64,000 nt of DNA from Bacteroidota bacterium (lineage in GTDB: Bacteria; Bacteroidota; Bacteroidia; Palsa-948). Below, one piece after another: positions 2,878-56,960 of the stretch (positions are counted from its first letter, which is position 1; the number at the start of each line of letters is the position of its first letter). The notes under the pieces were generated by a model. That model did not search any database and had not been told where the DNA came from. It was given only the letters and a program-made list of their open reading frames with translations. The DNA lies in the NCBI GenBank assembly GCA_003164895.1, contig PLUL01000051.1, positions 691 through 64,690 of the forward strand, given 5' to 3'. The position numbers were made by a program, and so were the translations under genes.

Positions 2878-4413
2878 ATGAAGAATAAAAAATTGCTTCT
2901 GGCTTCTGGCTTTTTGCTTCTGGCTTCCGGCATTTTCGCACAGATTAATCCAAACTTTAATTACACACAAACTTGTTATGGCAATCAAACTACGTTGCTC
3001 GCTTCTTCCGCATTGCTTGACACATCTATTAAAAGTTGGGTGTGGCATTTGCCCGATAACGGCACACACGACACGATTCAATATGGAAAAATGATTATTT
3101 ATCTTTTTTCTACAAAAGACACCAATGCAGTAAAATTGAAAATCACTCCTAATGTTGGAACACCTGATTCGATTACAAAAAATGTAATTATTGATCCGAT
3201 CCCACAGGTGAATTTTTTTGTAAATAATCTTTGTCAAGGGAAAAATGCAAGCTACATCAGTCAGTCTACAATTTCTTCAGGTAGCATCACAAATTATACT
3301 TGGGATTTTCATAATGACGGATCGGGTTTTGGTACTGGAGACACGGCTATTTATAATAATGGCACTCCCGGCATTTATCAAACCAAACTCACTTGCACTT
3401 CCAACAAAGGATGCCAAGCGTTTGCTGTTAAGACAACTCAAGTCTATCCAACTCCGACTGTTTCATTTAATACTACTAATTTTTGTTTGAACAACATAGC
3501 TACTTTTACGAACACCAGTATTGTAACTAATCTTGATCATTACCTTTGGAATTTTGGAGATGGAAGTCAAGGCACTACCTCTACCAATGGAACTCATATT
3601 TATGCTACTACCGGAAATTATTCCGTTACATTGATTGCTGTTACACAAAGCGGTTGTCGTGACACTACATCATTACCTACTACTATTTTCCCACTTCCTG
3701 TAGTATCCATTTCAGGGAATACACCAACCTGTATGGGAAATGCAGTTATACTCAATGCTTCCGGCGGAACTACTTATTCTTGGAACAACGGCGCAACTAC
3801 TGGAAGTATTACAGATGTTCCAACTGCTACTACTACTTATTCCGTTACTGCTACAAATCCCAATGGATGTTCAAATACGGCAAATGCATTAGTAACTGTA
3901 AATCCGTTACCGATGGTTTCAATTACTTCTCCAGTAGGTCGAGTTTTGTACCCCAACAGCAATGTAATTCTCGTTGCAAACGGAGCAACAAGTTATCAAT
4001 GGTATAAAAATCATATTTCAATTACCGGAGCAATTAACGACAACATCAAAGTTGATTCGAGTGGAATTTATTCTGTAACTGGAACAGATATGAACTCCTG
4101 CATGGCAAAAGACAGTATCAGCATTGTAAATGAAAGTTCAGATACAGTTGCTGTTACCAGCAATATTCTTACTCCGAATGGAGATGCCATAAACGATGTG
4201 CTGATGATTTTTAATATTTCCGCTTATCAAAATTGTCAACTTACTATTTACAATATGTGGAATGATAAAGTATTTCATACTGATCACTATAATAATAATT
4301 GGGATGGCAGATTAAATGGAAGCGGAAATATAGTCCCTTCGGGACCCTATTATTACATCATCAAATGCGATGATAAACCAATCTTGAAAGGAAACATAAA
4401 CGTACTTCATTAA
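2878..4413 (+). CDS. T9SS cargo with PKD/Ig-like domains and type B (gliding motility-associated) C-terminal domain
   Basis: Probable start ATG 2878 (MKNKKLLL...FAQ signal). PKD motif YLWNFGDG. C-terminal NILTPNGDAIND...IYNMW...WDG...GPYYY. Directly followed by a PorP/SprF gene. Confidence 0.88.
   Translation: MKNKKLLLASGFLLLASGIFAQINPNFNYTQTCYGNQTTLLASSALLDTSIKSWVWHLPDNGTHDTIQYGKMIIYLFSTKDTNAVKLKITPNVGTPDSITKNVIIDPIPQVNFFVNNLCQGKNASYISQSTISSGSITNYTWDFHNDGSGFGTGDTAIYNNGTPGIYQTKLTCTSNKGCQAFAVKTTQVYPTPTVSFNTTNFCLNNIATFTNTSIVTNLDHYLWNFGDGSQGTTSTNGTHIYATTGNYSVTLIAVTQSGCRDTTSLPTTIFPLPVVSISGNTPTCMGNAVILNASGGTTYSWNNGATTGSITDVPTATTTYSVTATNPNGCSNTANALVTVNPLPMVSITSPVGRVLYPNSNVILVANGATSYQWYKNHISITGAINDNIKVDSSGIYSVTGTDMNSCMAKDSISIVNESSDTVAVTSNILTPNGDAINDVLMIFNISAYQNCQLTIYNMWNDKVFHTDHYNNNWDGRLNGSGNIVPSGPYYYIIKCDDKPILKGNINVLH
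2895..2929 (+). repeat. Heptamer tandem array GCTTCTG x5 (degenerate) in signal peptide
   Basis: GCTTCTG GCTTCTG GCTTTTT GCTTCTG GCTTCCG, encoding LLASGFLLLASG. Confidence 0.85.
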
Positions 4414-4440
4414 TTTATAGTTTATATTCAAAGTTTAAAG

Positions 4441-5385
4441 ATGAAAAATAAAATTCTACTTCTTGCTAATGGCTTTTGGCTGATGGCTAATGGCTTGTTT
4501 GCTCAACAGCTTCCACTTACCGATCAATACACAGTAAACAAATTTGTTTTGTCGCCTGCGTATGCCGGAACAAGCGAGGCATTTGAAATTTTCGGCACCT
4601 ACAGAAATGAATGGGTTGGAATTTCAGGTGCACCTGATACTAAAATTATTACGGCTGACGGATTGGTTTGTAAAAACATGGGGATTGGAGGAAGTATCAG
4701 CAGTATTGAAGCCGGAATTTTCAGAAATCAATCTGCTTCTTTTACTTACGCTTATCATGCAAAGCTTGGCGCAACACAAACCTTAAGTTTCGGACTTAGT
4801 ATTGGTTTACTCGAAAGTCACGTGGATGTAACAAGTGCCGGTGCACAGACAGATCCGGTTGTTGCAAATGCACAGAATTTTAATTCTCTGGTGCTTGATG
4901 GCGGCTTCGGAATGTTGTATCGCTGCAAAAATTTTCATGCTGCATTTTCATTGCCGCAAATGCTCGGCAGCAAAATAAAAAATGCTGACGGAAATACTAT
5001 TTACGCTCTTGCCATGCAGCCATCCATTAATGTTGGATACAAATATGCGTTCAATTCCGATTGGACAATTGATCCGATTGTGAAAGTAACAAAGGCAATT
5101 AATTCTAACACATCTTTCGAACTCGCGGTTCCCATTATGTACAAACAAAAAGTTTGGCTCGTTCCCATCTACAAAAATACTGCGTTTGGAGTTGGCTTCG
5201 GAGGAATGCCTTACGGAAATTTCATCGCACAATATTCGTATGAATTTTCTTCAACCGGAATGCTTGCACAATCTTCCGGCACGCACGAAATTACTATCGG
5301 TTGGAGAATGCAGTCTTCAAAGAAAAAAACCGATGTGCCTGCTCCCGATTCTAAAAAACCATATTACCAGTGGTTGAATAAGTAA
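4441..5385 (+). CDS. PorP/SprF family T9SS outer-membrane protein
   Basis: QQLP..QY....LSPAYAG, YRNEWVGISGAP and C-terminal YSYE...GTHEITIG motifs typical of PorP/SprF. Lies downstream of a type B CTD cargo. Confidence 0.9.
   Translation: MKNKILLLANGFWLMANGLFAQQLPLTDQYTVNKFVLSPAYAGTSEAFEIFGTYRNEWVGISGAPDTKIITADGLVCKNMGIGGSISSIEAGIFRNQSASFTYAYHAKLGATQTLSFGLSIGLLESHVDVTSAGAQTDPVVANAQNFNSLVLDGGFGMLYRCKNFHAAFSLPQMLGSKIKNADGNTIYALAMQPSINVGYKYAFNSDWTIDPIVKVTKAINSNTSFELAVPIMYKQKVWLVPIYKNTAFGVGFGGMPYGNFIAQYSYEFSSTGMLAQSSGTHEITIGWRMQSSKKKTDVPAPDSKKPYYQWLNK
4465..4499 (+). repeat. Heptamer tandem array GCTAATG-like x5 (degenerate) in signal peptide
   Basis: GCTAATG GCTTTTG GCTGATG GCTAATG GCTTGTT, encoding ANGFWLMANGL. 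Confidence 0.75.
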
Positions 5386-5388
5386 TAA

Positions 5389-6756
5389 ATGGGTTACAAG
5401 TTACAAGTTACAGGTTACAGGTTGAAATCGTTTCATTTTCTGAATGTATTTTTGATTTTACAATTTGCAATCTGCAATTTGCAATCTGCAATCTGCCAAA
5501 CTCCAATTCCCGCTCCTCCGCAAACAAAAAGTATTTTGCTGATGAATGGCATTGCGCACATCGGCAACGGGAAAGTAATTGAGAATTCTGCCATCGGATT
5601 CAAGAATGGAAAAATAGAACTTATTGCAGATGCCACTACCATCCGCCTCATGAAAGGTGCGTATGATACAACTATAAATATTTCGGGCAAACATGTTTAT
5701 CCCGGATTTATCGCACCAAATTCTACGCTTGGATTAAATGAAATTGAAGCCGTGCGCGCTACTCGTGATTTTTCCGAAACAGGAAGTTACAATCCACATG
5801 TTCGAAGCATCGTTGCTTACAACAGCGATTCAAAAATTCCGCCAACGGTGAGAACGAACGGTATTTTACTTGCACAAATTACTCCGCGCAGCGGAACTAT
5901 TTCAGGAACTTCTTCCATTATTGAATTGGACGGATGGAACTGGGAAGACATGGCGCTAAAAACCGATGACGGCATTCACCTCAACTGGCCCAGAATGTTC
6001 AAACGCGAAAGGGAAAAAGATGAGGACTTTAATGAAATGCCTCCGCTGAAAAAAAATGAAGATTACGAAAAACAGAAAAATGAACTTAAAAAGTTTTTTT
6101 CGGATGCAAAAGCATACAACGAAATTCCTGCCGCTGAAAAAAATCTTCGTCTCGAAGCGATGAAAGGAATTTTTTCAAGTGCAAAAATTCTTTACGTTCA
6201 TGTCAATTATGCAAAAGAAATTGAAGATGCCGTTCATTTTTTAAAAGACGCTGGCGTAAAAAAAATGGTGATCGTGGGCGGAACAGATTCGTGGATGGTT
6301 GCCGATTTGCTCAAAGAAAATAATATTCCGGTGATGGTGAACCGCATTCACGATCTGCCAAACAGAACCGATGACGATATAGATCTTCCGTATAAACTGC
6401 CTACACTTTTGCAGAAAGCCGGGGTTTTATTTTGCCTCGAAAATTCGGGCGACATGGAAGAAATGCAGGAGCGCAATCTGCCTTTCAATGCCGGAACTGC
6501 CGCTGCTTACGGACTTACAAAAGAAGAAGCGCTTGCTTCCATTACGCTGAACGCGGCAAAGATTTTAGGAATTGATAACCGCGTTGGTTCGCTCGAAGCC
6601 GGCAAAGATGCCACGCTTTTTATTTCCACCGGTGATGCACTGGATATGAAATCGAACAATGTGGAACTGGCATTTATACGCGGAAAAAAACTTGACCTCT
6701 CCAACGAACAGAAAGCACTGTACGGAAAGTACATGAAGAAGTACGGATTGAAATGA
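5389..6756 (+). CDS. Amidohydrolase-superfamily protein, exported
   Basis: GKHVYPGFI N-terminal strand and C-terminal ITLNAAKILGIDNRVGSLEAGKDA motif. The canonical HxH after PGFI is absent (APNS). Confidence 0.85.
   Translation: MGYKLQVTGYRLKSFHFLNVFLILQFAICNLQSAICQTPIPAPPQTKSILLMNGIAHIGNGKVIENSAIGFKNGKIELIADATTIRLMKGAYDTTINISGKHVYPGFIAPNSTLGLNEIEAVRATRDFSETGSYNPHVRSIVAYNSDSKIPPTVRTNGILLAQITPRSGTISGTSSIIELDGWNWEDMALKTDDGIHLNWPRMFKREREKDEDFNEMPPLKKNEDYEKQKNELKKFFSDAKAYNEIPAAEKNLRLEAMKGIFSSAKILYVHVNYAKEIEDAVHFLKDAGVKKMVIVGGTDSWMVADLLKENNIPVMVNRIHDLPNRTDDDIDLPYKLPTLLQKAGVLFCLENSGDMEEMQERNLPFNAGTAAAYGLTKEEALASITLNAAKILGIDNRVGSLEAGKDATLFISTGDALDMKSNNVELAFIRGKKLDLSNEQKALYGKYMKKYGLK
5393..5423 (+). 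repeat. Heptamer tandem array GTTACAR x4 at gene start
   Basis: GTTACAA GTTACAA GTTACAG GTTACAG GTT, encoding (M)GYKLQVTGYRL. Confidence 0.9.
5461..5495 (+). repeat. Heptamer tandem array CAATYTG x5 in signal peptide
   Basis: CAATTTG CAATCTG CAATTTG CAATCTG CAATCTG, encoding QFAICNLQSAIC. Confidence 0.9.
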
Positions 6757-6795
6757 ATTGTATTGACGGCAAATCACGACCTTTAAATTGCCACA

Positions 6796-8328
6796 ATGAA
6801 AAATTTTAAATTCATTTTTTACAAACTCAGCCCGGATTTGTTCTTTGTTGTTTTTGCATCTTTTTTTGGTTTAATCATATTACTATTAACACCTCCTTTT
6901 CAAATACCTGATGAAATCAACCATTTCTATAGAGCTTATCAGATTTCAGAAGGCACTTTAATTTCGATTAAACAAGACAATCGTGTAGGAGGATTCATAC
7001 CAACAAGTCTTATAAAAATAACAGAACCCTTTTTGTACTTGCGTTGGAATAAGAATGTAAAAACAAATTACAAAACTATTCTTGAACAATTCAAAATACC
7101 ATTAAACCCGGAAGAAAAATGTTTTGCCGATTTTCCAAATACTGCTATGTATTCTCCTATCGCATATTTTCCTCAAGCAATATCTATTTTTACTTTAAGA
7201 AAACTTCATGCCCCACCAATATATTTATTCTATGGAGCAAGGATTTTCACATTAATTTTTTGGATTTGCAGCATATTTTATACTATAAGATTAATGCCTT
7301 TTTTAAAATGGCTATTTGCGCTTATTGCTTTGCTGCCTATGTCTCTGTTTATAAACATGTCATTAAGCGCGGATGTAGTAACTAATTTATTATCGTTTAT
7401 CTTAATAGCATATACCTTCAAATTATCTTTTTTAGAACAAACTATCTCTATAAAAAATTTCATTATTACTTCTTTATTACTATTCGTACTGGCATCTTCC
7501 AAACTCGTTTATACTCCTCTAATACTTTTGTTTCTATTGATTCCCAAAGAAAAATTTATTAATAAAAAAACTTATTACATTAAACTAATATTGCTTTTAA
7601 TTATTTCTTTGGGAACTGTTTTATTTTGGTCAACAATATTAAATAGTCTATATACGCCTTACGCTGAATATAATATTGCATTTCGGGATAATGCAAATTT
7701 GATGCAATGTGCAGATATGCACGAGCAAATGCAATATATATTAAATCATGGATTATATATATTGATTGTTTTTGTTATTTCGATGCTCCATACTTTTAAC
7801 ATGTATTTTCAGAGCTATATTGGCACTTTCGGTTGGCTCGATACAGAATTGCCGATATGGTTTATCTACTTTTCATATGCAATACTTGTATTTGTCGCAA
7901 TTGCAGATAGAGGTAATTCCATTAGTTTGAAGTCATATCATAAAAAAATAATATCTATTAGTTTAATTGCAGTCATCTGTCTGGTGCTTTTATCCCAGCA
8001 TTTAACATGGGATTGTGTTGGAGGCATGATAATTGGCACTATTCAAGGAAGGTATTTTATTCCGGCTTTTCCACTTCTTTTTATTTTACTTTATAATTCA
8101 AAATTTAATCATTCCAAACCAATAGTACCTATAATTATTATCTTCTCATTTCTTAGTTTATTACTGACCATTAAAACCCTGTATACAAGGTATTATGACA
8201 CTACTGAATTTGAATCTACTACAATTATACCAGCAAATTACAACCTCTCAAATCGCTGTTGTCCATCCTGCCAAGCACTTCAAAACTTCCATCTTTATGA
8301 GTTCTTCCCACATCCTGCGTGGCAATGA
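6796..8328 (+). CDS. DUF2142-family polytopic membrane protein (putative GT-C glycosyltransferase)
   Basis: TPPFQIPDEINHFYRAYQIS, YSPIAYFPQAI, IGTFGWLDT and QGRYFIP motifs, with many TM segments. The last 104 nt overlap the convergent gene. Confidence 0.8.
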   Translation: MKNFKFIFYKLSPDLFFVVFASFFGLIILLLTPPFQIPDEINHFYRAYQISEGTLISIKQDNRVGGFIPTSLIKITEPFLYLRWNKNVKTNYKTILEQFKIPLNPEEKCFADFPNTAMYSPIAYFPQAISIFTLRKLHAPPIYLFYGARIFTLIFWICSIFYTIRLMPFLKWLFALIALLPMSLFINMSLSADVVTNLLSFILIAYTFKLSFLEQTISIKNFIITSLLLFVLASSKLVYTPLILLFLLIPKEKFINKKTYYIKLILLLIISLGTVLFWSTILNSLYTPYAEYNIAFRDNANLMQCADMHEQMQYILNHGLYILIVFVISMLHTFNMYFQSYIGTFGWLDTELPIWFIYFSYAILVFVAIADRGNSISLKSYHKKIISISLIAVICLVLLSQHLTWDCVGGMIIGTIQGRYFIPAFPLLFILLYNSKFNHSKPIVPIIIIFSFLSLLLTIKTLYTRYYDTTEFESTTIIPANYNLSNRCCPSCQALQNFHLYEFFPHPAWQ

Positions 8329-9226
8329 ATGAGCAGGAATTAATATTTGCAAGGTCAATAATATTTAACGCTCCGGTTTGTCCGTGTGGTAAAAAAGAGA
8401 ACGGATCGTTTGCATCGCGCACAAAAACTTTCATCCATGGCGGGCATTGAAAAATTCCATCTCCTTTTGAATACGCCTGCGAGAGCAATTCCGTCATTCC
8501 GTATTCGGAATGAATTTTTTTCACACCAAATTTTTTAGAAAGAGTTTTGTGAAGTTCTTCCCGCGTAATTTCCTCGCGCCTTCCTTTCATGCCGCCTGTT
8601 TCGATGATAAAAACCTCACCCTTCATCCCTCTCCTCAAGGAGAGGGAAGTTTTTTCAGTAAGATCCAATAAAGCATAAGATACGCCAAAAAGAATTATTT
8701 TTTTCTTTTCCGAAAGAAGATTTTTCAGTGTAATTAACAATTTTTCTTGCTCTTGCTTTTTATAAAACCGACTTTCTTTTTTTCTGCTACTTTTCATCAA
8801 ATCATTCATCATAAAAAGCAACGAAGAACTCTTGTTTTCATAATAAGATGGAAGAAAAGAAAGAATGGAATATTGTTTTGTATCTCCGTAAAAGATATCA
8901 AAACATTTTCTGAAACTTTTTTCATACAAACTGAGGTCGGAAACAAAATGTTTACTTCGCTCCATTCCGGTGGTTCCGCTGCTTAAAAAGATTTGAGATT
9001 TGAGATTTGAGATTTGAGATTTGCAAACGACTTTCTGTGTTTTGAAAAATTCTATCGGCAAAAAAGGAATTTGATTTACCTCTTTTACTTTTTCAGGTGC
9101 AATTCCAAGCTGCCTGATATAATTTTTATAAACTAAATTATTCGCTGCCTGAAATTGAAAAATTTCAAGGGCTTTTTTTTCAAAGTCCTTTTTAGTTGTG
9201 ATGGAAAAAATATCGGAATGATTCAC
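8225..9226 (-). CDS. LuxE-like acyl-protein synthetase / acyl transferase
   Basis: IPFLPIEFFK, SSGTTG, ETGGMKGRR, SEYGMTELLSQAY and LGRMDNSDLRGCNLL motifs. GTG start. Confidence 0.88.
   Translation of the reverse strand: MNHSDIFSITTKKDFEKKALEIFQFQAANNLVYKNYIRQLGIAPEKVKEVNQIPFLPIEFFKTQKVVCKSQISNLKSQIFLSSGTTGMERSKHFVSDLSLYEKSFRKCFDIFYGDTKQYSILSFLPSYYENKSSSLLFMMNDLMKSSRKKESRFYKKQEQEKLLITLKNLLSEKKKIILFGVSYALLDLTEKTSLSLRRGMKGEVFIIETGGMKGRREEITREELHKTLSKKFGVKKIHSEYGMTELLSQAYSKGDGIFQCPPWMKVFVRDANDPFSFLPHGQTGALNIIDLANINSCSFIATQDVGRTHKDGSFEVLGRMDNSDLRGCNLLV
8614..8648. repeat. REP-like palindromic element inserted in frame in the LuxE-like gene
   Basis: CCTCACCCTTCA followed by the inverted repeat TCCCTCTCCT (8626-8635) / AGGAGAGGGA (8638-8647). 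Translated on the minus strand as TSLSLRRGMKGEV. Confidence 0.75.
8989..9023. repeat. Perfect heptamer array (AGATTTG)x5 in the LuxE-like gene
   Basis: Five exact copies, encoding KSQISNLKSQI on the minus strand just before FLSSGTTG. Confidence 0.95.
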
Positions 9227-9241
9227 AGAAAAAATACTTGT

Positions 9242-9790
9242 TCAGAAAACAAAAACAGGAGTTGAGATTACATTACTCTTGTGCCTTGCTTCATCGTATA
9301 TATAAACTTGATAATATATTGCTTGGTGAAGCAACCATCCATATTTGAATGATCCCCTAGGTATTGAAACCGAAATAATACCTTTCATTGGTTGGGTTGT
9401 GTTTGGAGGCAGAACAACCGGAACACGGTAACGAAGCTCGGCGGTATCGAATGGAATTCCACCTTGCGTTACCCCAACATTAAGATTCCATAAATTCCAA
9501 ATATGAGGATTCCTATTAGGCACAGAATCATAATACAAAATTCCAAAAAAATTTCCTTTTGCAAATATTCCATTCGTATCAGACTGAGCAAATCCAATAT
9601 CTCCTTCCTCATCTTCAAATGTAATAGAAAGTGCAACTGAATCAGGATCAGAGGGATTAACACCATACCGAATAAAATTACTAAATGCTATTAATGGTGT
9701 AGAAGGATAAACCGGCTTCTTCACACAGGAATAAATAATTACTGCTAAAAAAACGAAAAAAATAAATATATATATACCTTTGTCTTTCAC
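9242..9790 (-). CDS. Lipoprotein of unknown function
   Basis: GTG start, hydrophobic signal ending IIYS-C, ITFEDEEGDIG motif. TACATTTG box upstream on the minus strand (9807-9814). Confidence 0.75.
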   Translation of the reverse strand: MKDKGIYIFIFFVFLAVIIYSCVKKPVYPSTPLIAFSNFIRYGVNPSDPDSVALSITFEDEEGDIGFAQSDTNGIFAKGNFFGILYYDSVPNRNPHIWNLWNLNVGVTQGGIPFDTAELRYRVPVVLPPNTTQPMKGIISVSIPRGSFKYGWLLHQAIYYQVYIYDEARHKSNVISTPVFVF

Positions 9791-9896
9791 TACTAATTTA
9801 TGAAAACAAATGTAACGATTATTATTTCAATCATTTTGCCTTTTCAAAAAATATTTGCATCTTTACAGTCTATATTATCTTACAACAACCTTTGAA

Positions 9897-10955
9897 ATGA
9901 AAAAATATTTTCTTTCCCTGCTATTTTTTGTTTTGACACTTGGTTTTTCTTTGAATGCTCAGGATATTCATTTTTCTCAATACAACCTTACACCTATGTT
10001 GATTAATCCAGCACAAGCCGGAGCGTATAAGGACTTTGAATTTATTGCTAATTATAAAACTCAATGGACAAGTATTTCACCTAATGCATATAAAACAATG
10101 ATGTTTTCGTATGATAGTCGCCTGATGCAACAAAAGTGGAAAACAAAATGGCTTGCAGTAGGTTTTAATATTTATAGTGACAAGGCAGGCGATGGTAATA
10201 TGGGTACTACTGAAGCATTGGCTTCAATTGGATATCACACAATGCTTAACAATAAAAACACCCTCGGCGGATGCTTGTTTGGAGGATATGCTCAGCGAAG
10301 TATTAATTATGCAAATTTAACGTGGGATGAACAATATCAAAATGGTATTTACAGTTCTTCCAATTCAAGTGGAGAAACGCTCCTTCAGAACAATAACAAA
10401 TTTGGATATCCCGATTTTGGAATGGGAGTACTTTACCAATATTCAAAAGGGCAAATGTATTCCACGGCAAATGATATGATAGTGGTTCACGCAGGGCTTT
10501 CTCTTTTTCATTTGAATAATCCAAAATATTCGTATTACAATTCCAGCGAAAAATTATACACAAAAATTGTAGGTCATGCAGATGTGCTCATAGGAATAAA
10601 AAACACCAATTTTGCACTCATGCCAGGTATTATTTATATGCAACAAGGTCCTTCAACAGAAATTTATCCCGGATGTTTTTTTCGTTATATGTTGAAGGAG
10701 CAATCAAAATTTACGGGTTACGTGAAAGGTGCTTCCATTATGTTTGGAACACATTTCCGAACAAGTACAATAAACAGTGATGCTTTTGTTCCTTCTATTC
10801 AACTTGAGGTGGCGGAATATACGATTGGAGTAAGTTATGATATGAATATTTCAGGATTAAAAACTGCTACCTCTGGCATGGGTGGTTTTGAAATTTCACT
10901 TCGTTACGGCAACCCAAGCCCATTCTTATATAAATCCGCGGCAAGTTTTCAATGA
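9897..10955 (+). CDS. PorP/SprF family T9SS outer-membrane protein
   Basis: Probable start ATG 9897. QDIHFSQY...INPAQAG, NYKTQW, DKAG and GVSYDMNISGL..A....GGFEISLRY motifs. Confidence 0.88.
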   Translation: MKKYFLSLLFFVLTLGFSLNAQDIHFSQYNLTPMLINPAQAGAYKDFEFIANYKTQWTSISPNAYKTMMFSYDSRLMQQKWKTKWLAVGFNIYSDKAGDGNMGTTEALASIGYHTMLNNKNTLGGCLFGGYAQRSINYANLTWDEQYQNGIYSSSNSSGETLLQNNNKFGYPDFGMGVLYQYSKGQMYSTANDMIVVHAGLSLFHLNNPKYSYYNSSEKLYTKIVGHADVLIGIKNTNFALMPGIIYMQQGPSTEIYPGCFFRYMLKEQSKFTGYVKGASIMFGTHFRTSTINSDAFVPSIQLEVAEYTIGVSYDMNISGLKTATSGMGGFEISLRYGNPSPFLYKSAASFQ

Positions 10956-10974
10956 TATTTATCAGGTTATTTTT

Positions 10975-11006
10975 ACCCCCATGGTGAAAAACTTTGGGGG
11001 TTTTTT
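10975..11006 (+). terminator. Putative intrinsic terminator
   Basis: ACCCCC...GGGGGT followed by a T-run, 20 nt after the PorP/SprF stop. Confidence 0.5.
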
Positions 11007-11030
11007 ATTTCTCCGATTGATTCGCAATAT

Positions 11031-11038
11031 TACATTTG
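11031..11038 (+). promoter_or_regulatory. Bacteroidota -7 promoter box (TAnnTTTG) for sdhCAB
   Basis: TACATTTG about 45 nt upstream of sdhC. Confidence 0.6.
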
Positions 11039-11083
11039 CACCTGCTTTAAAAAAGTTGGAGCAAAAATCTTATCCTATTTTTT

Positions 11084-11767
11084 ATGACCATTGAACAATT
11101 CATCACCTCATCCCTCGGCAGAAAAACGGTAATGGCTGCAACGGGCTTATTCCTCTGCGTGTTTCTGGTGGAACACCTTTATGGAAATCTTCTTCTCTTT
11201 TTTAGTGACGGAGGAGCGGCATTCGTGGCATATTCTCACGATGCAGTACACAGCATCATTATTCGCTCAATAGAAGTTTTTCTATTTGTTGCGATTTTGT
11301 TGCATGTGGTTCAGGCAACGTATCTGACCAGACAAAACTCCGTTGCGCGTCCGGTAAAATATGCTGTTTACAAAGTGAACGAAACATCTTCTTGGTTTTC
11401 GCGCAACATGGGAATCACCGGAAGTTTAATTTTCTTTTTCATCGTAGTTCATCTCTGGCATTTTTTCGTTCCATACAGAATTACCGGAACTGTTGGCGGT
11501 GAAAGTTCGACAAATGTTGCACAAGCAGTGAAAGAAGCTTTTCAAAACGGTTGGTATGTTTCGCTTTATGTTGTAGCAGTTGTTGTTCTTTCTTTTCACC
11601 TCAATCACGGATTTCAATCTGCATTCAGAAGCTTAGGGCTGAACTCAAAAAAATATACACAGTTACTTTCTCTCTTTGGAAGTTTCTTTGCTTTTATAAT
11701 AGTGGGTGTTGGATTCGCATCGTTTCCAATTTTATTTTATTTCGGCATTGCCGGTTCAACTATTTGA
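11084..11767 (+). CDS. sdhC: Succinate dehydrogenase/fumarate reductase cytochrome b subunit
   Basis: SSLGRKTVMAATGLFL...HLYGNL, five TM segments, heme-ligand His residues (HLWHF, HLNHG). First gene of the sdh operon. Confidence 0.93.
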   Translation: MTIEQFITSSLGRKTVMAATGLFLCVFLVEHLYGNLLLFFSDGGAAFVAYSHDAVHSIIIRSIEVFLFVAILLHVVQATYLTRQNSVARPVKYAVYKVNETSSWFSRNMGITGSLIFFFIVVHLWHFFVPYRITGTVGGESSTNVAQAVKEAFQNGWYVSLYVVAVVVLSFHLNHGFQSAFRSLGLNSKKYTQLLSLFGSFFAFIIVGVGFASFPILFYFGIAGSTI

Positions 11768-11770
11768 TAT

Positions 11771-13750: not shown

Positions 13751-13761
13751 AAAATATTATT

Positions 13762-14505
13762 ATGAATTTGACATTAAAAGTCTGGAGACAGAAAAACAAA
13801 AACGACAAAGGTGGTTTCGCAACATATCAAGTTGATGGAATCTCTCACGAGATGTCGTTCCTCGAAATGTTCGATGTACTGAACGAACGCCTTATCCAAA
13901 AAAACGAAGAGCCAATCGCTTTCGACCACGATTGCCGCGAAGGAATTTGCGGAATGTGTTCGATGTTCATCAACGGTCGCGCTCACGGACCATGGACCAG
14001 AACCACTGTGTGTCAACTGCACATGCGCGCATTCAAAGACGGGGAAACGATTGTCATCGAACCATGGAGAGCAAAAGGATTTCCTGTGCTAAAAGATTTG
14101 ATGGTTGACCGTTCTGCTTTTGACCGCATCATTGCTGCCGGAGGATTTGTTTCGGTAAATACCGGAAATGCTCAGGATGCAAATTGCCTTCCTATTCCAA
14201 AACCTGATGCCGATGAATCATTCAGCGCGGCTGCATGTATTGGCTGCGGTGCGTGTGTGGCATCATGCAAAAATTCTTCCGCTATGCTTTTTGTTTCTGC
14301 CAAGGTTTCTCAGCTCGCTCTTCTTCCGCAAGGTCAGGTTGAACGAAAACAACGTGCGCTGGATATGGTTGCGCAAATGGATGCCGAAGGATTTGGCAAT
14401 TGCACCAACACCGGTTCCTGCGAAGCAGAATGTCCGAAAGGAATTTCTCTCACTCACATCGCAAGATTGAATCGAGAATATCTGCTGGCGAATGTGCTAG
14501 AATAA
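13762..14505 (+). CDS. sdhB: Succinate dehydrogenase/fumarate reductase iron-sulfur subunit
   Basis: [20 protein letters not shown] and [12 protein letters not shown] Fe-S motifs. Confidence 0.97.
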
Positions 14506-14523
14506 AATTATCTAAAAACTATC

Positions 14524-14853
14524 ATGGACAAACATAACATCACCACCGCATTTATCTTAGACGGATACAAAATCACAAAAAATCTTGGCATCGTTAGAGG
14601 AATTACCGTTCGTTCAAGAAGCATTTTTGGAAACATTGGCGCGGGATTCCAGGCACTTGTTGGTGGAAATATTTCTATTTATACCGAACTGTGCGAAAAA
14701 GCAAGGGAGGAAGCTTATGAAATATTGATGGTTCACGCAGAAAAAATTGGAGCAAATGCCATTATTGGAATGCGCTACGATGCAAATGAAGTGGCTCAAG
14801 GCATAACCGAAGTTCTTGCTTATGGCACGGCAGTTATCGTGGAGAAAGTTTAG
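14524..14853 (+). CDS. YbjQ (UPF0145) family protein
   Basis: LGIVRGITVRSR...GGNI..Y..L...AREEA...GANAIIGMRYD...EVLAYGTAV signature. Confidence 0.9.
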   Translation: MDKHNITTAFILDGYKITKNLGIVRGITVRSRSIFGNIGAGFQALVGGNISIYTELCEKAREEAYEILMVHAEKIGANAIIGMRYDANEVAQGITEVLAYGTAVIVEKV

Positions 14854-14868
14854 TGCGTATTTTTGTGC

Positions 14869-17312: not shown

Positions 17313-17380
17313 AATTGAATTTTTAGACGGCAAAGGTAATTTTTTTTTGAAAAGTGATTTGCAAAAATACAAACGAAAAC

Positions 17381-18337
17381 TTACTGCGCTTTGGGGGCAA
17401 CCTTCGCACCAGCAGTTTTGAAATGAAGAGCAATATAAAGCTCATGGGTTCCATTAGCATATCGCTTCAAGCTGGATGTGGTGAGATCATAAGCGTAACC
17501 AAAAGAAAGATTGTCTTTGTAAATATATCCAGTCATGAAAGATATGGCATCCTGCAAACGATATGTTACAGCAAGCCATGCTTTTTTAATATAAATAACT
17601 CGAGCACCGATATCCACTTGAACCGGAGTAGGGCTCACATCTTGCACAAGGAAAGAAGGTTCAACGGCAAATTCGTCTGTCAGAAATAATTTATATCCGC
17701 CTGTAATAAACAAATGCGTGGCAAGTGTTCCTGTCTGAACAGGAGTTTGATCAAGGTTGAGCTTTGCCTGAAACAATTGCGGTACATATCCGCCAAACCA
17801 CCAGCTGCTAGCTCCATTTTCTTTTGGAAGTCCGTAGAGATAAAAGGAAGTTCCAAGATCGGGAACAATAACCGAGTGATACAAATTCAAAGCATAATCA
17901 GTAGGATCGTTCAGCGTAAGTTTGGATCCATCAATTGCAAATTGTTCTACTCCGGCAGAAATTGAAAGCGATAATTTTATTTTTTCTTGAAGTTTGATGT
18001 GATAGGAGTACGAACCACTTGCTCCTGTTCTTCTCGTAGGACCGGAAATGTCCGAATAGATATATCCGCCAACACCCATATTTGTTTTGGGAATCGATCC
18101 ATCCATGCTGAAACAATACGTGCGCGGTGCATCGGTAATGCCCACCCATTGCAAACGATTGATGGAAACAGCTTCAAAATAATTTCTGCTTCCGGCAACA
18201 GCAGGATTCTGAAAATAATCGTTCAGCATATATTGGCTGAAAGTGGGCAGTTGCTGCGCGATTGCAGATTGCAGATTGCAGATTAGAAATTGCAAAATGA
18301 AAAGCGAAACAACAATTTTTAATTTTTCATTTTTCAT
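17381..18337 (-). CDS. PorP/SprF family T9SS outer-membrane protein (SprF-like partner of the upstream adhesin)
   Basis: QQLPTFSQYM....QNPAVAG, RLQWVGITDAPRT and GYAYDLTTS.L.....GTHE motifs. Starts 11 nt after the SprB-like gene. Confidence 0.92.
   Translation of the reverse strand: MKNEKLKIVVSLFILQFLICNLQSAIAQQLPTFSQYMLNDYFQNPAVAGSRNYFEAVSINRLQWVGITDAPRTYCFSMDGSIPKTNMGVGGYIYSDISGPTRRTGASGSYSYHIKLQEKIKLSLSISAGVEQFAIDGSKLTLNDPTDYALNLYHSVIVPDLGTSFYLYGLPKENGASSWWFGGYVPQLFQAKLNLDQTPVQTGTLATHLFITGGYKLFLTDEFAVEPSFLVQDVSPTPVQVDIGARVIYIKKAWLAVTYRLQDAISFMTGYIYKDNLSFGYAYDLTTSSLKRYANGTHELYIALHFKTAGAKVAPKAQ
18260..18294 (-). repeat. Heptamer tandem array TGCAATC x5 (coding strand, degenerate) in signal peptide
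   Basis: Plus strand GATTGCA GATTGCA GATTGCA GATTAGA AATTGCA, encoding QFLICNLQSAI. A second array, ATTTTTM x3 at 18315-18335, encodes the N-terminal KNEKLKI. Confidence 0.9.
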
Positions 18338-18348
18338 TATTAATTATT

Positions 18349-29272: not shown

Positions 29273-30905
29273 CATATTTGAACATACAGATTGTATTTCA
29301 GAAGAAAAACTTTTGAAATATATTTCTAATACACTTTCTCCTGCCGAAAAACACGAGGTGGAAAAACATTTGATTGATTGCGAACTATGTTCAGATGCGG
29401 TGGAAGGTCTGCAAATGATTTCGGATAAGAAAAAAATTACCAGAATTACTGCAGAGTTAAATCAGAAAATTGAACAGCGGGTCGAAAAAAAAGAAGTTAA
29501 AGTAATTTTTCTTAAACAATACCGCACTCCTCTTGCTGTTGCTGCTTCTGTCATACTGATTGTCGGATTAGTTTGGTTTTTCCGAAGCAATATGAAAGAA
29601 ATGGATACGGTATCTTCTGAAAAAATATTTGCCGACAAGTTCGTTCCTCCTCCTGCCGAAAAACAGATGGAAGAAAAAGAAAAGGTTGCTGCCGGGAAAG
29701 AACAAACGGAAACAGATAATATTGCTGCTCCAGCTACAACCGTTGAACGCAACTTAGAGCATGAACCGTCTACAGGATTACTTTCTGACAAACAAGATGA
29801 AAAAACAAAAGTTACTTTGCAGGAGAAAAAAGGGAAAGACGTTTCATCAGGAGAAAGTTTTGGCTGGTCTACAACATCTTCTAACAATACTCAAGCTGCT
29901 CCATCTCAGAAATCACAGCAAATAGTTACAAAAGGAGAAAAAGCGGAAGAAGATTACCGTTACAATAAAACTGATGCGGCTGCAAAAGAAAATTCAAATT
30001 CCACTACAACTCCAGATGTATCTGCTAAGAATGCGAATATGAATTTTCGCAGTGAAGATATTGCGTTGAGCCGCAAAGAAGTTTCTAAAAATCAGAATGC
30101 ATTAATTCCTCAGAGCGATAAAGATAAAAAAGACGAAGCCAAAAAACCTGAATCCGCTCCATCAATTACAGCTACCGGCGCGACAGCAGGTGCGTATGAC
30201 CAGCCCGTTGACAAAAAAGTTACGCTTGCAAAACAAGAAAATAAAAAATCAACAGACGACCGAGAACGCGCACAAAAACAGGAAGGCGATGCGCTGGCTC
30301 TTAAAACAGAAAAATTGAGCGAAACAAAATCTGTTTCAGAAGAAAAATCAAAAATAAAAAATTTCAAAAAAGAAAAAGAAGCATCGCCTAAAAAAGTTTC
30401 GGAAGGATATTATGAAACACAGACTATTACTACTGCTGCTCCTGTTCCCCAATCACAAACTATAACTAAGCAATCGGAAATAAACGGAAAGATGCTTGAT
30501 TCTGTTTCTGTGTCATCAGCACTTACATCAAATGATGTTACTTCAAACCAAACAAATCCATCCGATGATGCAATGGCAAAATATGACAAACAGGATTATA
30601 CAGGAGCAATCACAGAGTTTGAGCAAACGCTGAAACAAAATCCGAATGATGAAAAATCTTTATTCTATTCGGCGGTTTCCTATTTAAGTTTAGGACAACC
30701 CGACAAAGCAATCACCAACTTCAATAAAGTTTTACAAAATAAAAACAGTAATTATTTTGATGATGCACAATGGTATCTTTCTCTCGCTTACATAAAAAAG
30801 AAAGATTCTCAAAACGCAAAAAGAAATTTAATTGAGATTCAAAATAATTCCAAAAGCAAATATCAGAAACAGGCGAATGAAACGTTGAAGGAGATGAATA
30901 AGTAA
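29256..30905 (+). CDS. Anti-sigma factor: zf-HC2 + TM + long charged linker + TPR
   Basis: HLIDCELC (HxxxCxxC), TM LAVAASVILIVGLVWFF, C-terminal TPRs (AQWYLSLAY). Overlaps the sigma gene by 17 nt. Confidence 0.85.
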   Translation: MKKANNIFEHTDCISEEKLLKYISNTLSPAEKHEVEKHLIDCELCSDAVEGLQMISDKKKITRITAELNQKIEQRVEKKEVKVIFLKQYRTPLAVAASVILIVGLVWFFRSNMKEMDTVSSEKIFADKFVPPPAEKQMEEKEKVAAGKEQTETDNIAAPATTVERNLEHEPSTGLLSDKQDEKTKVTLQEKKGKDVSSGESFGWSTTSSNNTQAAPSQKSQQIVTKGEKAEEDYRYNKTDAAAKENSNSTTTPDVSAKNANMNFRSEDIALSRKEVSKNQNALIPQSDKDKKDEAKKPESAPSITATGATAGAYDQPVDKKVTLAKQENKKSTDDRERAQKQEGDALALKTEKLSETKSVSEEKSKIKNFKKEKEASPKKVSEGYYETQTITTAAPVPQSQTITKQSEINGKMLDSVSVSSALTSNDVTSNQTNPSDDAMAKYDKQDYTGAITEFEQTLKQNPNDEKSLFYSAVSYLSLGQPDKAITNFNKVLQNKNSNYFDDAQWYLSLAYIKKKDSQNAKRNLIEIQNNSKSKYQKQANETLKEMNK

Positions 30906-31913
<1,008 letters not shown>

Positions 31914-31918
31914 GGGAA

Positions 31919-37921: not shown

Positions 37922-39502
37922 ATGACAAATCGAAAAATTATAATCGGAAGCCGCGGAAGCGACCTCGCACTCTGGCAGGCAAATTTTGTTTTGGCTGAAC
38001 TGAAAAAACTAAAGATAGATGCTGAACTGAAGATCATCAAAACACAAGGAGATCAAATTCAGAATTTAAGTTTTGATAAACTGGAAGGCAAAGGATTTTT
38101 CACAAAAGAAATTGAAGATGCTTTGCTGAAAAAAGATATTGACCTTGCCGTTCACTCGCATAAAGATTTGCCTACCGAATCTCCCGAAGGATTAATGATT
38201 GCCGCTGTTTCTGAGCGCGAAGACCCGAGCGAACTTTTGCTAATAAATAAAAATGCAGTTGATGAAAAACAAAAGTTTTCATTAAAACAAAATGCACTTG
38301 TCGGAACTTCATCAGCCAGAAGAAAATCACAACTTTTGGCTTGGAGAAATGATTTGAAAATTGAAGACCTGCGAGGAAATGTCCCTACACGAATTCAAAA
38401 ACTCAGAGATAAAAAATACGATGCCATATTAATTGCAAATGCCGGAGTTTCACGTCTGGAAATTGATTTGAGTGAATTTTATTGCGAGAAATTAGATGTG
38501 AAAGAATTTATTGCCGCGCCTGCACAAGGAGTTCTCGCTCTGCAAATTCGCGAAAGCGACAAAGAATTATTTGAAAAACTTCAACCTTTAAATCACAAGG
38601 AAGTTGCAGAAACGATTGGCGTGGAAAGAAAAATCCTGAATTTGTTTGATGGCGGCTGCCAGCTTCCGCTTGGGGTTTACTGCGAGAAAGATGAGAATCA
38701 AAATGGCGAAACTATTTTCAAAGTAAGAGTTGCAAAAGCGGAAAACGCGAACTCTTTTCCAAAATATTTTTATTTCGAATCGAAGAAAATTGATGGTCTT
38801 GCAGAAAAAATTGTTGAGAAAATAAAGAACATAAAAGGAAATTCTGTTTTTATTTCCCGTGATGAAAAGAAAAACGATTTCTTCAAAAGATGTCTGGAAG
38901 CAAACGGCTACAAAGTCTTTGCTCAATCGTTAATTGCGATAAAACAAATTCCCATCCGGAAATATAAAAAATGCGATTGGATTTTCTTCTCCAGCAAAAA
39001 TGCGGTGCAACATTTCTTTGAGCAAAAACCCGATGTGGAAGGAGTGAAATTTGGCGCGGTAGGAAAATCTACTGCGGAAGAAATTCGCAAGTTTGGCAAA
39101 CGCGCTGAGTTCATCGGCAATTCGGATGATACGCGCATGACCGGAAAAAAATTCTCCGCGCTGGTAGGAAATAAAACTGTTTTGTTCCCGCAGGCGAAAG
39201 AAAGTATGAAAACGATTCAGTTCCAGTTGCCGAGAAAAGAAAATGTGGTTGACCTCATTGTTTACGAAACATTAAAAATCAAGAACTGCCAACTGCCTAT
39301 TGCCGACTGCCAACTTCTTATTTTTACAAGCCCTTCAAATGTGGAAACCTTTTTCGAAAAAAACAAAATAAGCGCTGAGCAAAAAGTAATTGCAATGGGA
39401 GATGCCACGGCAAATGCAGTAAAAAAACACGGAGTGAAAGCAAACAAACAACCTGCATCGTTTGATGATTTAGGATTGGTGCAGGCGGTGATGTCTATAT
39501 AA
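37922..39502 (+). CDS. hemC: Hydroxymethylbilane synthase fused to uroporphyrinogen-III synthase (HemC-HemD)
   Basis: IGSRGSDLALWQA, KGFFTKEIE, AVHSHKD, GTSSARR, RGNV.TR, GGCQLPLG. The C-terminal ~220 aa carry HemD motifs WIFFSSKNAV, AVGKSTA, VYET, FTSPSNV, AMG.ATA. Confidence 0.92.
   Translation: MTNRKIIIGSRGSDLALWQANFVLAELKKLKIDAELKIIKTQGDQIQNLSFDKLEGKGFFTKEIEDALLKKDIDLAVHSHKDLPTESPEGLMIAAVSEREDPSELLLINKNAVDEKQKFSLKQNALVGTSSARRKSQLLAWRNDLKIEDLRGNVPTRIQKLRDKKYDAILIANAGVSRLEIDLSEFYCEKLDVKEFIAAPAQGVLALQIRESDKELFEKLQPLNHKEVAETIGVERKILNLFDGGCQLPLGVYCEKDENQNGETIFKVRVAKAENANSFPKYFYFESKKIDGLAEKIVEKIKNIKGNSVFISRDEKKNDFFKRCLEANGYKVFAQSLIAIKQIPIRKYKKCDWIFFSSKNAVQHFFEQKPDVEGVKFGAVGKSTAEEIRKFGKRAEFIGNSDDTRMTGKKFSALVGNKTVLFPQAKESMKTIQFQLPRKENVVDLIVYETLKIKNCQLPIADCQLLIFTSPSNVETFFEKNKISAEQKVIAMGDATANAVKKHGVKANKQPASFDDLGLVQAVMSI
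39284..39318 (+). repeat. Heptamer tandem array AACTGCC x5 (degenerate) in the HemD domain
   Basis: AACTGCC AACTGCC TATTGCC GACTGCC AACTTCT, encoding NCQLPIADCQLL between VYET and IFTSPS. Confidence 0.85.
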
Positions 39503-54339: not shown

Positions 54340-54357
54340 AAAATTGGGTTTTTTAGA

Positions 54358-54376
54358 TTGTTTGTTTGTTTGTTTG
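54358..54376. repeat. TTG(TTTG)4 simple repeat between gldK and gldL
   Basis: TTGTTTGTTTGTTTGTTTG, read as CAAA repeats in the gldL leader. Confidence 0.6.
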
Positions 54377-54397
54377 CTTATTTAAATTCTATTCATT

Positions 54398-55852: not shown

Positions 55853-55994
55853 AGTTTTTATTTTATGTTTCAATTTCCGATTTAATATTAACGAAAGATT
55901 CTAAACTTTATTTTATTTAACAACTACTCTTTAAAAAATACGATACAAAAGACGACCTGATTTACAAGTCTATTAATTTTAAATAAACATTATC

Positions 55995-56960
55995 TTACCC
56001 CTTCAAAAACCTAGGATTAATATGACTTTGAGTCTTTGACTTCGGAGTTATTTTAATACAATAGTTCAGCAAAATTTCATGCGTATTACTATGATATGAT
56101 TTTAAATCGGATGTTCCAAGGTCATATGCATAACCAATTTTTAAAGTTGATTTTGCATTCGGACTCCACGCAAATCCCAGCATAGGAACAATAGCATCCT
56201 GTAATCGGTAAGAAACTCCCACCCATAGCATATTGTTCCAAAGTATATTTACATTTGCATCAAATGTTGTAACCGATGCATCACTTTTAACGAGGACTGA
56301 AGGTCTTAGCGTAAGAGCACTCGAAAGAAAAAAATCATATCCCGCCATTATATAATAATGCCTCGCAGCTGTGTAATCCAAATCCTGTGCTTTCAATTGT
56401 TGTTGTGGAAGATGTGAAGCAGAAATTCCAACATATAATTGATTTGTTCTATAGTATAATCCTAATCCAACATCATAAGTCATTTTTGTTATTCCAGCGG
56501 CAGGAATTGCATTGTCTTGCGCACTCCCATTGTGTCCGTTTGTTCCATCGGGAGCAAGCCAATTATCGGCAAAATGTGTTTGATAAATTCCAGCATCAAT
56601 TCCAATACCAAGTTTTCCTTCTGGTCCAACAGAAAGATGATACGAATAAGCACCACGTACCCAAGTGTTATACAAATTACCCAACTGATCATTCATTACC
56701 GTAAGACCAACTCCTCCGTGCAATGCTTGTATAGGAGCATCTGCACTGAAAAAAATAGTTTTGGGAGCACCCGGAAATCCAACCCATTGTGTTCTATATA
56801 CAGCGGTTGCGCAAATCGCACCATTAATTCCAGCGTAACCTGGATTTATTGGTAATTTAATAAACATATTTTGACTGAACTGCGGGTCTTGTTGTGCAAT
56901 ACCATTTATTAAAAAGCAGAAATTAAAAACTAAAAATAGGGGGATGAACGTTTTTCTCAT
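55995..56960 (-). CDS. porP: PorP/SprF family T9SS outer-membrane protein (canonical porP position)
   Basis: QQDPQFSQNMF...INPGYAG, YRTQWVGFPGAPKT, GYAYD...THE. Immediately upstream of gldK. Confidence 0.88.
   Translation of the reverse strand: MRKTFIPLFLVFNFCFLINGIAQQDPQFSQNMFIKLPINPGYAGINGAICATAVYRTQWVGFPGAPKTIFFSADAPIQALHGGVGLTVMNDQLGNLYNTWVRGAYSYHLSVGPEGKLGIGIDAGIYQTHFADNWLAPDGTNGHNGSAQDNAIPAAGITKMTYDVGLGLYYRTNQLYVGISASHLPQQQLKAQDLDYTAARHYYIMAGYDFFLSSALTLRPSVLVKSDASVTTFDANVNILWNNMLWVGVSYRLQDAIVPMLGFAWSPNAKSTLKIGYAYDLGTSDLKSYHSNTHEILLNYCIKITPKSKTQSHINPRFLKG
56909..56936 (-). repeat. Degenerate heptamer array (TTTTTAA-like x4) in the porP signal peptide
   Basis: Coding strand TTTTTAG TTTTTAA TTTCTGC TTTTTAA, encoding FLVFNFCFL. 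Low complexity makes chance harder to exclude. Confidence 0.45.

Follow-up and report, generated by a model that had tools for sequence, protein, structure and literature searches.

Short tandem arrays of 7-nucleotide units are dispersed through the coding sequence of a 64,000-nucleotide stretch of a Bacteroidota genome (G000), namely positions 691 to 64690 of contig C10; this whole stretch is referred to as the window. Period-7 arrays were called with Tandem Repeats Finder (TRF), and their host genes were identified by translation of open reading frames (ORFs) and by Pfam. TRF recovered all nine heptamer arrays that a first-pass annotation had listed, at the same positions and with the same unit families, with 3.6 to 5.3 copies each (Table 1; arrays are named by their first position). 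Three of them (8989, 18260 and 31860) show 100% unit matches. The host proteins are a PKD/CHU_C cargo protein of the type IX secretion system (T9SS), three PorP/SprF outer-membrane proteins, an amidohydrolase, an M28 peptidase, a LuxE-type acyl-protein synthetase and a HemC-HemD fusion. Translation, Pfam and alignments placed seven of the nine arrays in the n- or h-regions of signal peptides and two in loops, as had been proposed, and the 7-residue periodic peptides quoted for them were correct. The h-region is occupied in the T9SS cargo protein, the three PorP/SprF proteins and the M28 lipoprotein peptidase, and the amidohydrolase carries one array in the n-region and a second one in the h-region. 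The two internal arrays form enzyme loops, one in the LuxE-type synthetase and one in the HemD half of HemC-HemD. The six genes of the window whose arrays are N-terminal all encode members of exported families. A weaker tract at 56909 in the same annotation is also present, but TRF calls it with period 14 instead of 7.

The ORF of the PKD/CHU_C cargo protein covers positions 2794-4413, and its likely start is the ATG at 2878. The two arrays of the amidohydrolase gene pair weakly with each other (12 arm-arm pairs, z -2.0). The unit of array 18260 is identical to that of array 5461 once each is read on its coding strand. In the LuxE-type synthetase, the loop encoded by array 8989 precedes the SSGTTG motif.

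Table 1. Heptamer arrays and weaker tracts of the window, with units given on the gene strand (forward-strand form in brackets where the gene lies on the reverse strand).
Unit and copies	Position	Strand	Place in gene (encoded peptide)	Host	Basis
GCTTCTG x5.3	2895..2931	+	h-region (LLLASGFLLLASG)	PKD/CHU_C T9SS cargo protein	TRF, translation, Pfam
GCTAATG x4.4	4465..4495	+	h-region (ANGFWLMANGL)	PorP/SprF 4441-5385	TRF, translation, Pfam
GTTACAA x4.4	5393..5423	+	basic n-region (GYKLQVTGYRL)	amidohydrolase 5389-6756	TRF, translation, Pfam, alignment
CAATCTG x5.1	5461..5496 (period-14 row to 5508)	+	h-region (QFAICNLQSAIC)	amidohydrolase 5389-6756	TRF, translation
CAAATCT x5.0 (AGATTTG), perfect	8989..9023	-	loop (KSQISNLKSQI)	LuxE-type acyl-protein synthetase 8225-9226	
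CAATCTG (GATTGCA), 3.6 perfect copies	18260..18294 (period-7 row to 18284)	-	h-region (LICNLQSAI)	PorP/SprF 17381-18337	
AAAAATG/AAAAATT x4.6 (AATTTTT)	18314..18345	-	start codon and n-region (MKNEKLKI)	PorP/SprF 17381-18337	
AAAAATC x2.9, weak	30343..30362	+	inside ORF	ORF 29256-30905	TRF; absent from first-pass annotation
CTGCCTA x4.6 (GCAGTAG), perfect	31860..31891	-	h-region (SAYCLLPTAYC), lipoprotein signal peptide	M28 peptidase 30906-31937	
AACTGCC x4.6	39284..39315	+	loop (NCQLPIADCQL) in the HemD half	HemC-HemD fusion 37922-39502	TRF, Pfam, alignment
period-14 tract, 2.1 copies, 81%, weak	56908..56937	-	h-region (LFLVFNFCFLI)	PorP/SprF 55995-56960	

An excess of period 7 is found throughout this 100%-complete genome (3.25 Mb in 80 contigs, 37% G+C). 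TRF called 304 period-7 arrays with at least three copies, compared with 80, 38 and 40 arrays of periods 6, 8 and 9, respectively, and three shuffles of the genome that preserved dinucleotides in 1-kb blocks retained only 28, 23 and 16 period-7 arrays. Coding sequences hold 228 of the real arrays, a number that fell to 9 and 14 when codons were shuffled within genes, and to 17 and 7 when they were shuffled within 20-codon blocks, which preserves the local composition of signal peptides. The period-specific excess over codon-shuffled controls that the first-pass annotation had made a test of its proposal is thus present. Since the 7-nucleotide units lie head to tail in at least three copies and are commoner than expected from genome composition, the arrays are heptanucleotide simple-sequence repeats in the sense of long simple-sequence repeats. 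Most of the approximately 300 TRF arrays are imperfect; 55 are perfect, of which 31, 17 and 7 contain three, four and five full copies, and none exceeds five. The units fall into 117 strand-free types among 286 arrays, which agrees with the earlier view that they do not represent one mobile element. Sharing only the 7-nucleotide period, the arrays also differ from in-frame palindromic insertion elements of the Rickettsia palindromic element or miniature inverted-repeat transposable element type, which are many dispersed copies of one common sequence with inverted ends. The lengths of perfect arrays peak at 18, 25 and 32 nucleotides (7k+4), which fits growth by whole units from 4-nucleotide microhomologies spaced 7 nucleotides apart.

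The position of the arrays relative to genes was determined with a greedy ORF caller of our own, which gave 2854 genes (92% coding) and is crude, most of all in its choice of start codons. Once overlapping TRF rows had been merged, 290 arrays remained, 229 within coding sequences and 61 between genes. Among the coding arrays, 112 start within the first 40 codons (11.7% expected), 25 are found in the last 30 codons of the gene (8.6% expected) and 92 are located further inside. The mean Kyte-Doolittle hydropathy of the encoded heptads is +1.02 for N-terminal arrays, -0.75 for inner arrays and -1.03 for C-terminal arrays. Stop codons on both strands are present in 28 of 59 intergenic arrays, compared with 13% of random genomic heptamers. 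Signal peptides were called by a simple heuristic of our own, which classified 938 of 2810 genes as signal-peptide-like. An N-terminal array was present in 101 genes, 80 of which fall into this class (odds ratio 8.2, Fisher p 7.5e-22); such arrays are carried by 8.5% of the signal-peptide-like genes versus 1.1% of the remaining genes. This enrichment test contains some circularity, as the hydrophobic stretch is supplied by the array. Independently of the heuristic, the six window hosts belong to exported families, and in outgroup orthologues the matching place is taken by an ordinary signal peptide. The genome-wide enrichment in signal peptides and loops on which the first-pass annotation had also staked its proposal was therefore observed, so that neither of the outcomes named there as refuting it occurred.

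Between genes, 27 of the 40 arrays upstream of a gene end at most 16 nucleotides from a start codon; the array density in the 40 nucleotides upstream of starts is, by our own estimate, approximately the same as in other intergenic DNA. Stop-containing, A/T-rich arrays end 3-7 nucleotides before start codons at C12:46786-46813, C23:50950-50977, C48:33200-33236, C1:41134-41158 and C19:11935-11969. Judged by their N-termini, we take the genes behind these arrays to be rpsH, rpsB, mreB, mutL and a ferredoxin gene, and a further gene with a start-proximal array is presumably coaBC.

For comparison, 30 relatives were used: G001-G008 belong to the same genus, G009 to the same family, and the other 21 to different families of the class. 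Array density was determined in samples of 20-100 kb from each of 19 of them. Five genomes of the genus contain 18, 15, 15, 12 and 9.6 arrays per 100 kb and three contain 5, 4 and 3.5, while the value for G000 is 9.4; G009 had no array in 20 kb. In other families, the densities are 12, 10 and 10, then 4.9 and 4, and finally 2, 1.7, 1, 1 and 0 per 100 kb. A further 1.4 Mb, from 80 loci surrounding HemC-HemD homologues, contained 62 arrays of period 7 and 24 each of periods 6 and 8. The named relatives of the HemC-HemD protein all derive from metagenome-assembled genomes of uncultured Bacteroidia or Bacteroidota. The uneven densities indicate that the heptamer trait is clade-wide but patchy.

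Within the genus, the units of a given site are exchanged between species. In the LuxE loop, the DNA carries CAAATCT x5 in this genome, CCCCCGT in G002, CTCCGCA in G003, CAAGTCA in G005 and CAGTCGT in G007, and at least nine GTCACAA-type units are present in G004, whose loop is 14 residues (six units, 42 bp) longer. Six species of the genus thus carry six different units at this place. No array was seen in the LuxE loop of G001, G006, G008, G009 and the outgroups, and in 13 of the 17 loci of wider metagenomic relatives where the pattern matched, the loop has 24 non-periodic residues. The HemD loop is built from four unit families: AACTGCC-type units in five genus members (G000, G003, G005, G007 and G008), TTCGAAT in G002, AAGTCAC in G004 and AGTTGAA in G006; in outgroups it is 2-3 residues shorter and non-periodic. 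A similar replacement is seen in signal peptides. The h-region of PorP/SprF 17381 uses four different units in four species, CAATCTG here, five perfect copies of CCTTCTG in G004, GGCTTCT x4 in G005 and CTTTTnC in G007, where an AATTCAC array occupies the n-region as well. The orthologue of PorP/SprF 4441-5385 in G007 has GGCTTCT x4 at the equivalent place, the orthologue of the PKD/CHU_C cargo protein in G003 has a plain signal peptide, and outgroup amidohydrolases have non-periodic signal peptides that are approximately 16 residues shorter. The M28 lipoprotein signal peptide carries a CTGCCTA-type array within the genus and unrelated arrays in two other families (ATCGGTT x5 in G013, GTGGGCA x4 in G012), the remaining outgroups being plain; in G004 it is seven residues shorter (three units, 21 bp). 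The two length differences of G004 (LuxE loop, M28 signal peptide) each correspond exactly to a multiple of three units. The expectation that arrays would replace ordinary sequence in orthologues was borne out, as outgroups are mostly plain at the same sites. Since the arrays are internally uniform yet different between species, they point to repeated contraction and expansion.

The same tolerant spots are also used by GC-rich in-frame inserts in relatives, above all in G003. They encode peptides such as SPLLRRGAGGEV, PPFGRVGVG and TPNPSPSERG and were found at L334 and L328 (the G003 orthologues of PorP/SprF 17381 and 4441), at the HemC-HemD loci L002, L004, L011 and L017, and at the LuxE locus L023. 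Two of these inserts, both in signal peptides, appeared palindromic by eye. The GC-rich inserts may represent a second kind of small element in coding sequence.

Matches to positions 2800-9100 of the window occur in metagenome runs from peat and soil that belong to 13 studies. For a comparison of populations, assembled contigs of four public runs from four studies were examined against positions 2700-22000; assembled contigs drop rare variants. The contigs bridge arrays 2895, 4465, 5393, 5461, 18260 and 18314 with no differences and with no insertions or deletions. At array 8989 the metagenome contigs break and other contigs with the same unit accumulate; the summed depth in the bin of this array is 10-19 versus approximately 2-8 in neighbouring bins. 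Several other contigs match 5461-5494 or 8987-9023 only and then diverge on both sides, which indicates that these units are also present elsewhere, either at further loci or in different organisms of the community. A metagenome scan gave relatives of at most 69% identity.

We consider it probable that the arrays are heptanucleotide simple-sequence repeats which arise by tandem duplication with a preference for a 7-base step, most likely by slipped-strand mispairing, and which are filtered by reading frame and peptide tolerance. Slippage would start genome-wide from short local seeds, and the units would differ from place to place because each array grows from local sequence. The process would act in this genus of uncultured peat Bacteroidia and in some, not all, related families. 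As 7 and 3 have no common divisor, successive units pass through the three reading frames in turn; any starting frame yields one 7-residue periodic peptide, so that the frame is irrelevant and only the strand matters. Selection would then keep net length changes that are divisible by three (three units correspond to 21 bp and 7 residues) and units without stop codons in genes, leaving stop-containing units between genes. It would also keep those peptides that are tolerated, such that T-rich units would end up in h-regions, A-rich units in basic n-regions and polar units in surface loops and at protein ends. As to timing, the arrays turn over between species, where they are homogenised and replaced, but are fixed in the sampled population. 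The data support this reading of writing and filtering in outline and make slippage the likeliest writer. What they show is the excess of period 7, its placement in genes, the sorting by hydropathy, the turnover and the steps of 21 and 42 bp; that slippage is the process, and why the step is seven, is inferred.

Several observations weigh against this explanation. No slippage event was directly seen, as the contigs contain no length variants. The rough array density is approximately 1.1-1.3 per kb in signal-peptide codons (80 arrays over approximately 938 x 75 nucleotides) versus 0.24 per kb in intergenic DNA (61 arrays in approximately 251 kb), and this higher density implies that a tolerance filter alone is insufficient; the earlier statement that arrays survive only where protein sequence is tolerant was therefore too strong. 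One site sometimes holds unrelated units in different lineages, which slippage of an existing array cannot explain without decay and a fresh start. The choice of units is narrow as well: of the 240 units admissible for the 65 hydrophobic N-terminal arrays, 32 are used, whereas a simulation gave 54.8 on average and never fewer than 44; for the 85 inner arrays the figure is 53 of 1608 admissible units, compared with 81.9. Units are also recurrent: of 107 arrays in relatives, 49 are built from units present in this genome, and the GCTTCTG-type sequence of array 2895 has at least 11 short matches with 84-93% identity at other loci of five genus members. This narrow and recurrent usage may reflect copying between loci, a sequence preference, or coding constraints outside the simple model. 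Finally, 16 of the 290 arrays have an inverted partner within 150 nucleotides, compared with one in a control placed 1 kb away, and among 22 adjacent array pairs approximately ten fold arm on arm with z <= -2.

Three strong array pairs form long hairpins directly after stop codons, at C59:44812-44873 (z -7.0), C15:10642-10713 (z -6.8) and C51:12546-12620 (z -4.4). They lie behind a gene that we take to be rpoC, between convergent genes, and behind a gene for a lysine-rich protein, respectively, and look like terminators built from repeats.

The inverted pairs raise the question whether all arrays originated as hairpins. According to this explanation, which we regard as unlikely, arrays would be the arms, or leftover single arms, of hairpins with inverted-heptamer stems, whose clearest form carries a PF05635 gene (23S rRNA intervening-sequence protein or Avd-like four-helix bundle) in the loop, and every array would go back to the process that builds these stems or to the PF05635 protein. 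In this genome, the two PF05635 genes (C18:19743-20060 and C35:35946-36254) each lie between inverted arms with a 7-8-nucleotide periodicity. PF05635 matches occur in 26 of the 30 relatives (1-23 per genome) and are lacking in four. At nine of 12 such loci in relatives (L293-L304), complementary period-7 or period-14 arrays are present on both flanks, and the other three have period 8, 8-9 or 21; the flanking unit is different at every locus. The first-pass annotation had suggested looking for a four-helix-bundle or reverse-transcriptase-like gene family flanked by the arrays, and the former part of this suggestion held in relatives, while no PF00078 reverse transcriptase was found in G000. 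PF05635 copy number correlates with heptamer density (Spearman 0.76, n=20; 0.64 with one genome per family, n=11, p 0.035), with the reservation that relatives are not independent. Moreover, the site that holds a PF05635 cassette in G005 contains only a degenerate TAATACT-like remnant in this genome, and the adjacent pairs that fold would be expected from a hairpin origin. Against these points stand the numbers, because two PF05635 genes face 290 arrays in this genome, none of which lies beside one, and only the 16 arrays mentioned above have an inverted partner. The arrays of enzyme loops and h-regions are single, and their orthologues show no cassette. PF05635 cassettes occupy conserved syntenic sites across families, one of which is empty in this genome, and thus do not look very mobile. 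The window arrays are not placed around a PF05635 gene between inverted arms as the cassettes of relatives are, and contig C10 has no PF05635 match. Thus, the association between PF05635 and heptamers is real but covers a small minority of the arrays.

A related and still more doubtful idea is that a dedicated repeat-writing process linked to PF05635 genes lays 7-nucleotide tracts at gene boundaries and thereby repeatedly creates or overwrites signal peptides. If true, export signals would be the by-product of a specific molecular machine and not of ordinary replication error. The literature searched on PF05635 consisted of papers on diversity-generating retroelements and Avd and of one paper on rRNA insertions in the Candidate Phyla Radiation, and no link to heptamer arrays was found in it.

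The first-pass annotation had offered as an alternative that the arrays are contingency loci, i.e., evolved on/off switches of secreted or surface proteins in which a change by one or two units causes a frameshift just after the start. The arrays have the layout of such loci, with a unit length not divisible by three and a position in the 5' coding region, often within the leader peptide of exported proteins, and known models with a matching layout exist. In Neisseria opa genes, CTCTT pentamers in the region coding for the leader peptide vary in number and switch expression at approximately 1e-3 per generation, as described in parts of PMC3960869. As in opa, a unit that is not a multiple of three encodes the hydrophobic leader of an outer-membrane protein; unlike in opa as described there, the arrays have 3-5 copies, are mostly imperfect and are unchanged in independent assemblies. 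In neuO of Escherichia coli K1, AAGACTC repeats begin two bases after the start codon and are translated into heptads, and the gene is ON only at multiples of three repeats (PMC3046976, in the parts that concern the repeat). The period of 7, the translated 7-residue heptads and, as we infer, the three-unit quantum are shared with neuO, but the same parts of PMC3046976 describe neuO as one gene, located on a prophage, which has 2-93 copies and switches at high frequency, in contrast to the hundreds of loci with low copy numbers and the absence of switching in contigs reported here. Thus, opa and neuO are the closest functional analogues, whose length and, as far as the contigs show, variability the arrays lack.

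Further evidence argues against such switches, which we consider very unlikely. Long perfect tracts are missing, given the maximum of five full copies and the imperfection of most arrays. Housekeeping enzymes such as HemC-HemD and the LuxE-type synthetase are hosts as well, as is a protein that we take from its array-bearing N-terminus to be methionyl-tRNA synthetase, and arrays also occupy the 5' leaders of genes that presumably encode ribosomal proteins. The six arrays bridged by metagenome contigs were unchanged, although rare variants would be missed in such contigs, and the best genus matches of five window proteins have no internal stop codons, except for one TAG in the M28 match of G001. 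Among 39 start-proximal intergenic arrays inspected by eye, approximately one candidate for an OFF allele was seen. This candidate, C49:4440-4460, contains TTACTTT x3.0; one frame offers an MKHFIKYYFLLFIFF start and a different frame an FLFSSC lipobox. The two could be the halves of a frameshifted lipoprotein signal peptide, and it is the sole candidate of this kind that was seen.

It is highly improbable that the repeat itself has a selected function, either as a series of sites in 7-nucleotide register for an RNA- or single-stranded DNA-binding protein (a cold-shock-domain or S1 protein) or as an unstructured leader that aids translation start. The latter idea has its background in the lack of Shine-Dalgarno sites in Bacteroidota. 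The accumulation of upstream arrays within 16 nucleotides of start codons, including those of the genes that we take to be rpsB, rpsH, mreB, mutL, ferredoxin and coaBC, would be in line with such a function. The same layout has been described for TAACTGA direct repeats in Beggiatoaceae and Flexibacter litoralis; these repeats occur in marine Beggiatoaceae, cyanobacteria and five Bacteroidetes, in sets of 2-6 copies that often lie a few nucleotides upstream of start codons (MacGregor 2015; parts of PMC4679880). For these repeats, horizontal spread was suggested and cold-shock-domain or S1 proteins were proposed as binders in the same parts of PMC4679880. The intergenic arrays share the start-codon-proximal layout of the TAACTGA repeats; in contrast to that single and mostly intergenic unit, as PMC4679880 presents it in these parts, the units reported here are diverse and mostly translated. 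They are too varied for sequence-specific binding and have no common trinucleotide motif (best enrichment 1.66-fold), and the density before start codons, as estimated above, does not exceed that of other intergenic DNA.

Four more specific candidates were rejected. In signal-peptide genes, the predicted mRNA folding energy from -20 to +80 around the start was -12.4 kcal/mol with an array (n=77) and -12.6 kcal/mol without one (n=757; p 0.65), which does not support an unstructured leader. CAA as a shared unit motif was enriched 1.35-fold over background and occurred in 19% of intergenic arrays, and was attributed to coding constraint. Transposon footprints consisting of repeated 7-bp target-site duplications predict whole copy numbers instead of the observed 7k+4 lengths, and writing by a reverse transcriptase is at odds with the zero PF00078 matches in this complete genome.

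Slippage with a 7-base step has a precedent in the literature. According to the summary in PMC4679880 of Mrazek, Guo and Shah 2007, heptanucleotide repeats are the most abundant class among units of 5-11 nucleotides in most genomes and across phyla, and were explained by slippage with a proposed 7-nucleotide polymerase contact or footprint; repeats within genes mainly have unit lengths divisible by three. The claim of the first-pass annotation that an unknown process writes the tracts thus went too far, because both the period-7 excess and a slippage explanation are in print in this summarised form. The arrays resemble the repeats of that summary in that 7-nucleotide units are the commonest and that slippage can account for them. 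They differ from it in that 229 of 290 arrays lie in called genes, half of those in the first 40 codons, and the summary in PMC4679880 makes no mention of signal-peptide building or of unit replacement between species.

Filamentous cyanobacteria contain short tandemly repeated repetitive (STRR) heptamers, which form many dispersed arrays of a few fixed units, mostly between genes. The period of 7 and the many dispersed arrays per genome are common to both systems, whereas with 117 unit types and 79% of arrays in coding sequence the arrays described here do not belong to the STRR type. The literature searched on repeats contained no description of heptamer-built signal peptides or of their replacement between species. 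Thus, the heptanucleotide excess is known, and what is new against this literature is a coding, signal-peptide-building and fast-turnover form of heptanucleotide simple-sequence repeats.

Some neighbouring features of the window deserve a brief description. On the reverse strand, positions 253-2778 encode an 841-residue protein that combines seven WD40 repeats with a caspase (Peptidase_C14) domain at its C-terminus. A 2279-residue ORF (18349-25188, reverse strand) lies directly upstream of PorP/SprF 17381-18337 on the same strand and may encode a giant T9SS cargo protein partnered with its PorP. At positions 46583-46972, within ORF 45086-47677, an 81-bp repeat is present in 4.8 copies with 80% matches; its consensus is rich in Asp and Gly and gives the impression of resembling the calcium-binding repeats of OmpA-type proteins.

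The heptamer arrays constitute a natural system in which to ask why bacterial tandem duplication favours a 7-base step. This question was posed in 2007 (Mrazek, as summarised in PMC4679880); the polymerase footprint of that summary was the only proposal for the number seven in the literature searched on repeats, in which no answer was found. On the practical side, array-built N-termini are of low complexity and change fast, and can therefore mislead the calling of start codons, the assignment of orthologues and the repeat-based prediction of phase variation. In the usual view, signal peptides change by point mutation. By our own heuristic, approximately one in twelve predicted signal peptides of this genome (80 of 938) is written by a 7-base repeat, and the arrays thus provide a fast, non-standard route by which export signals and surface loops are made and remade.

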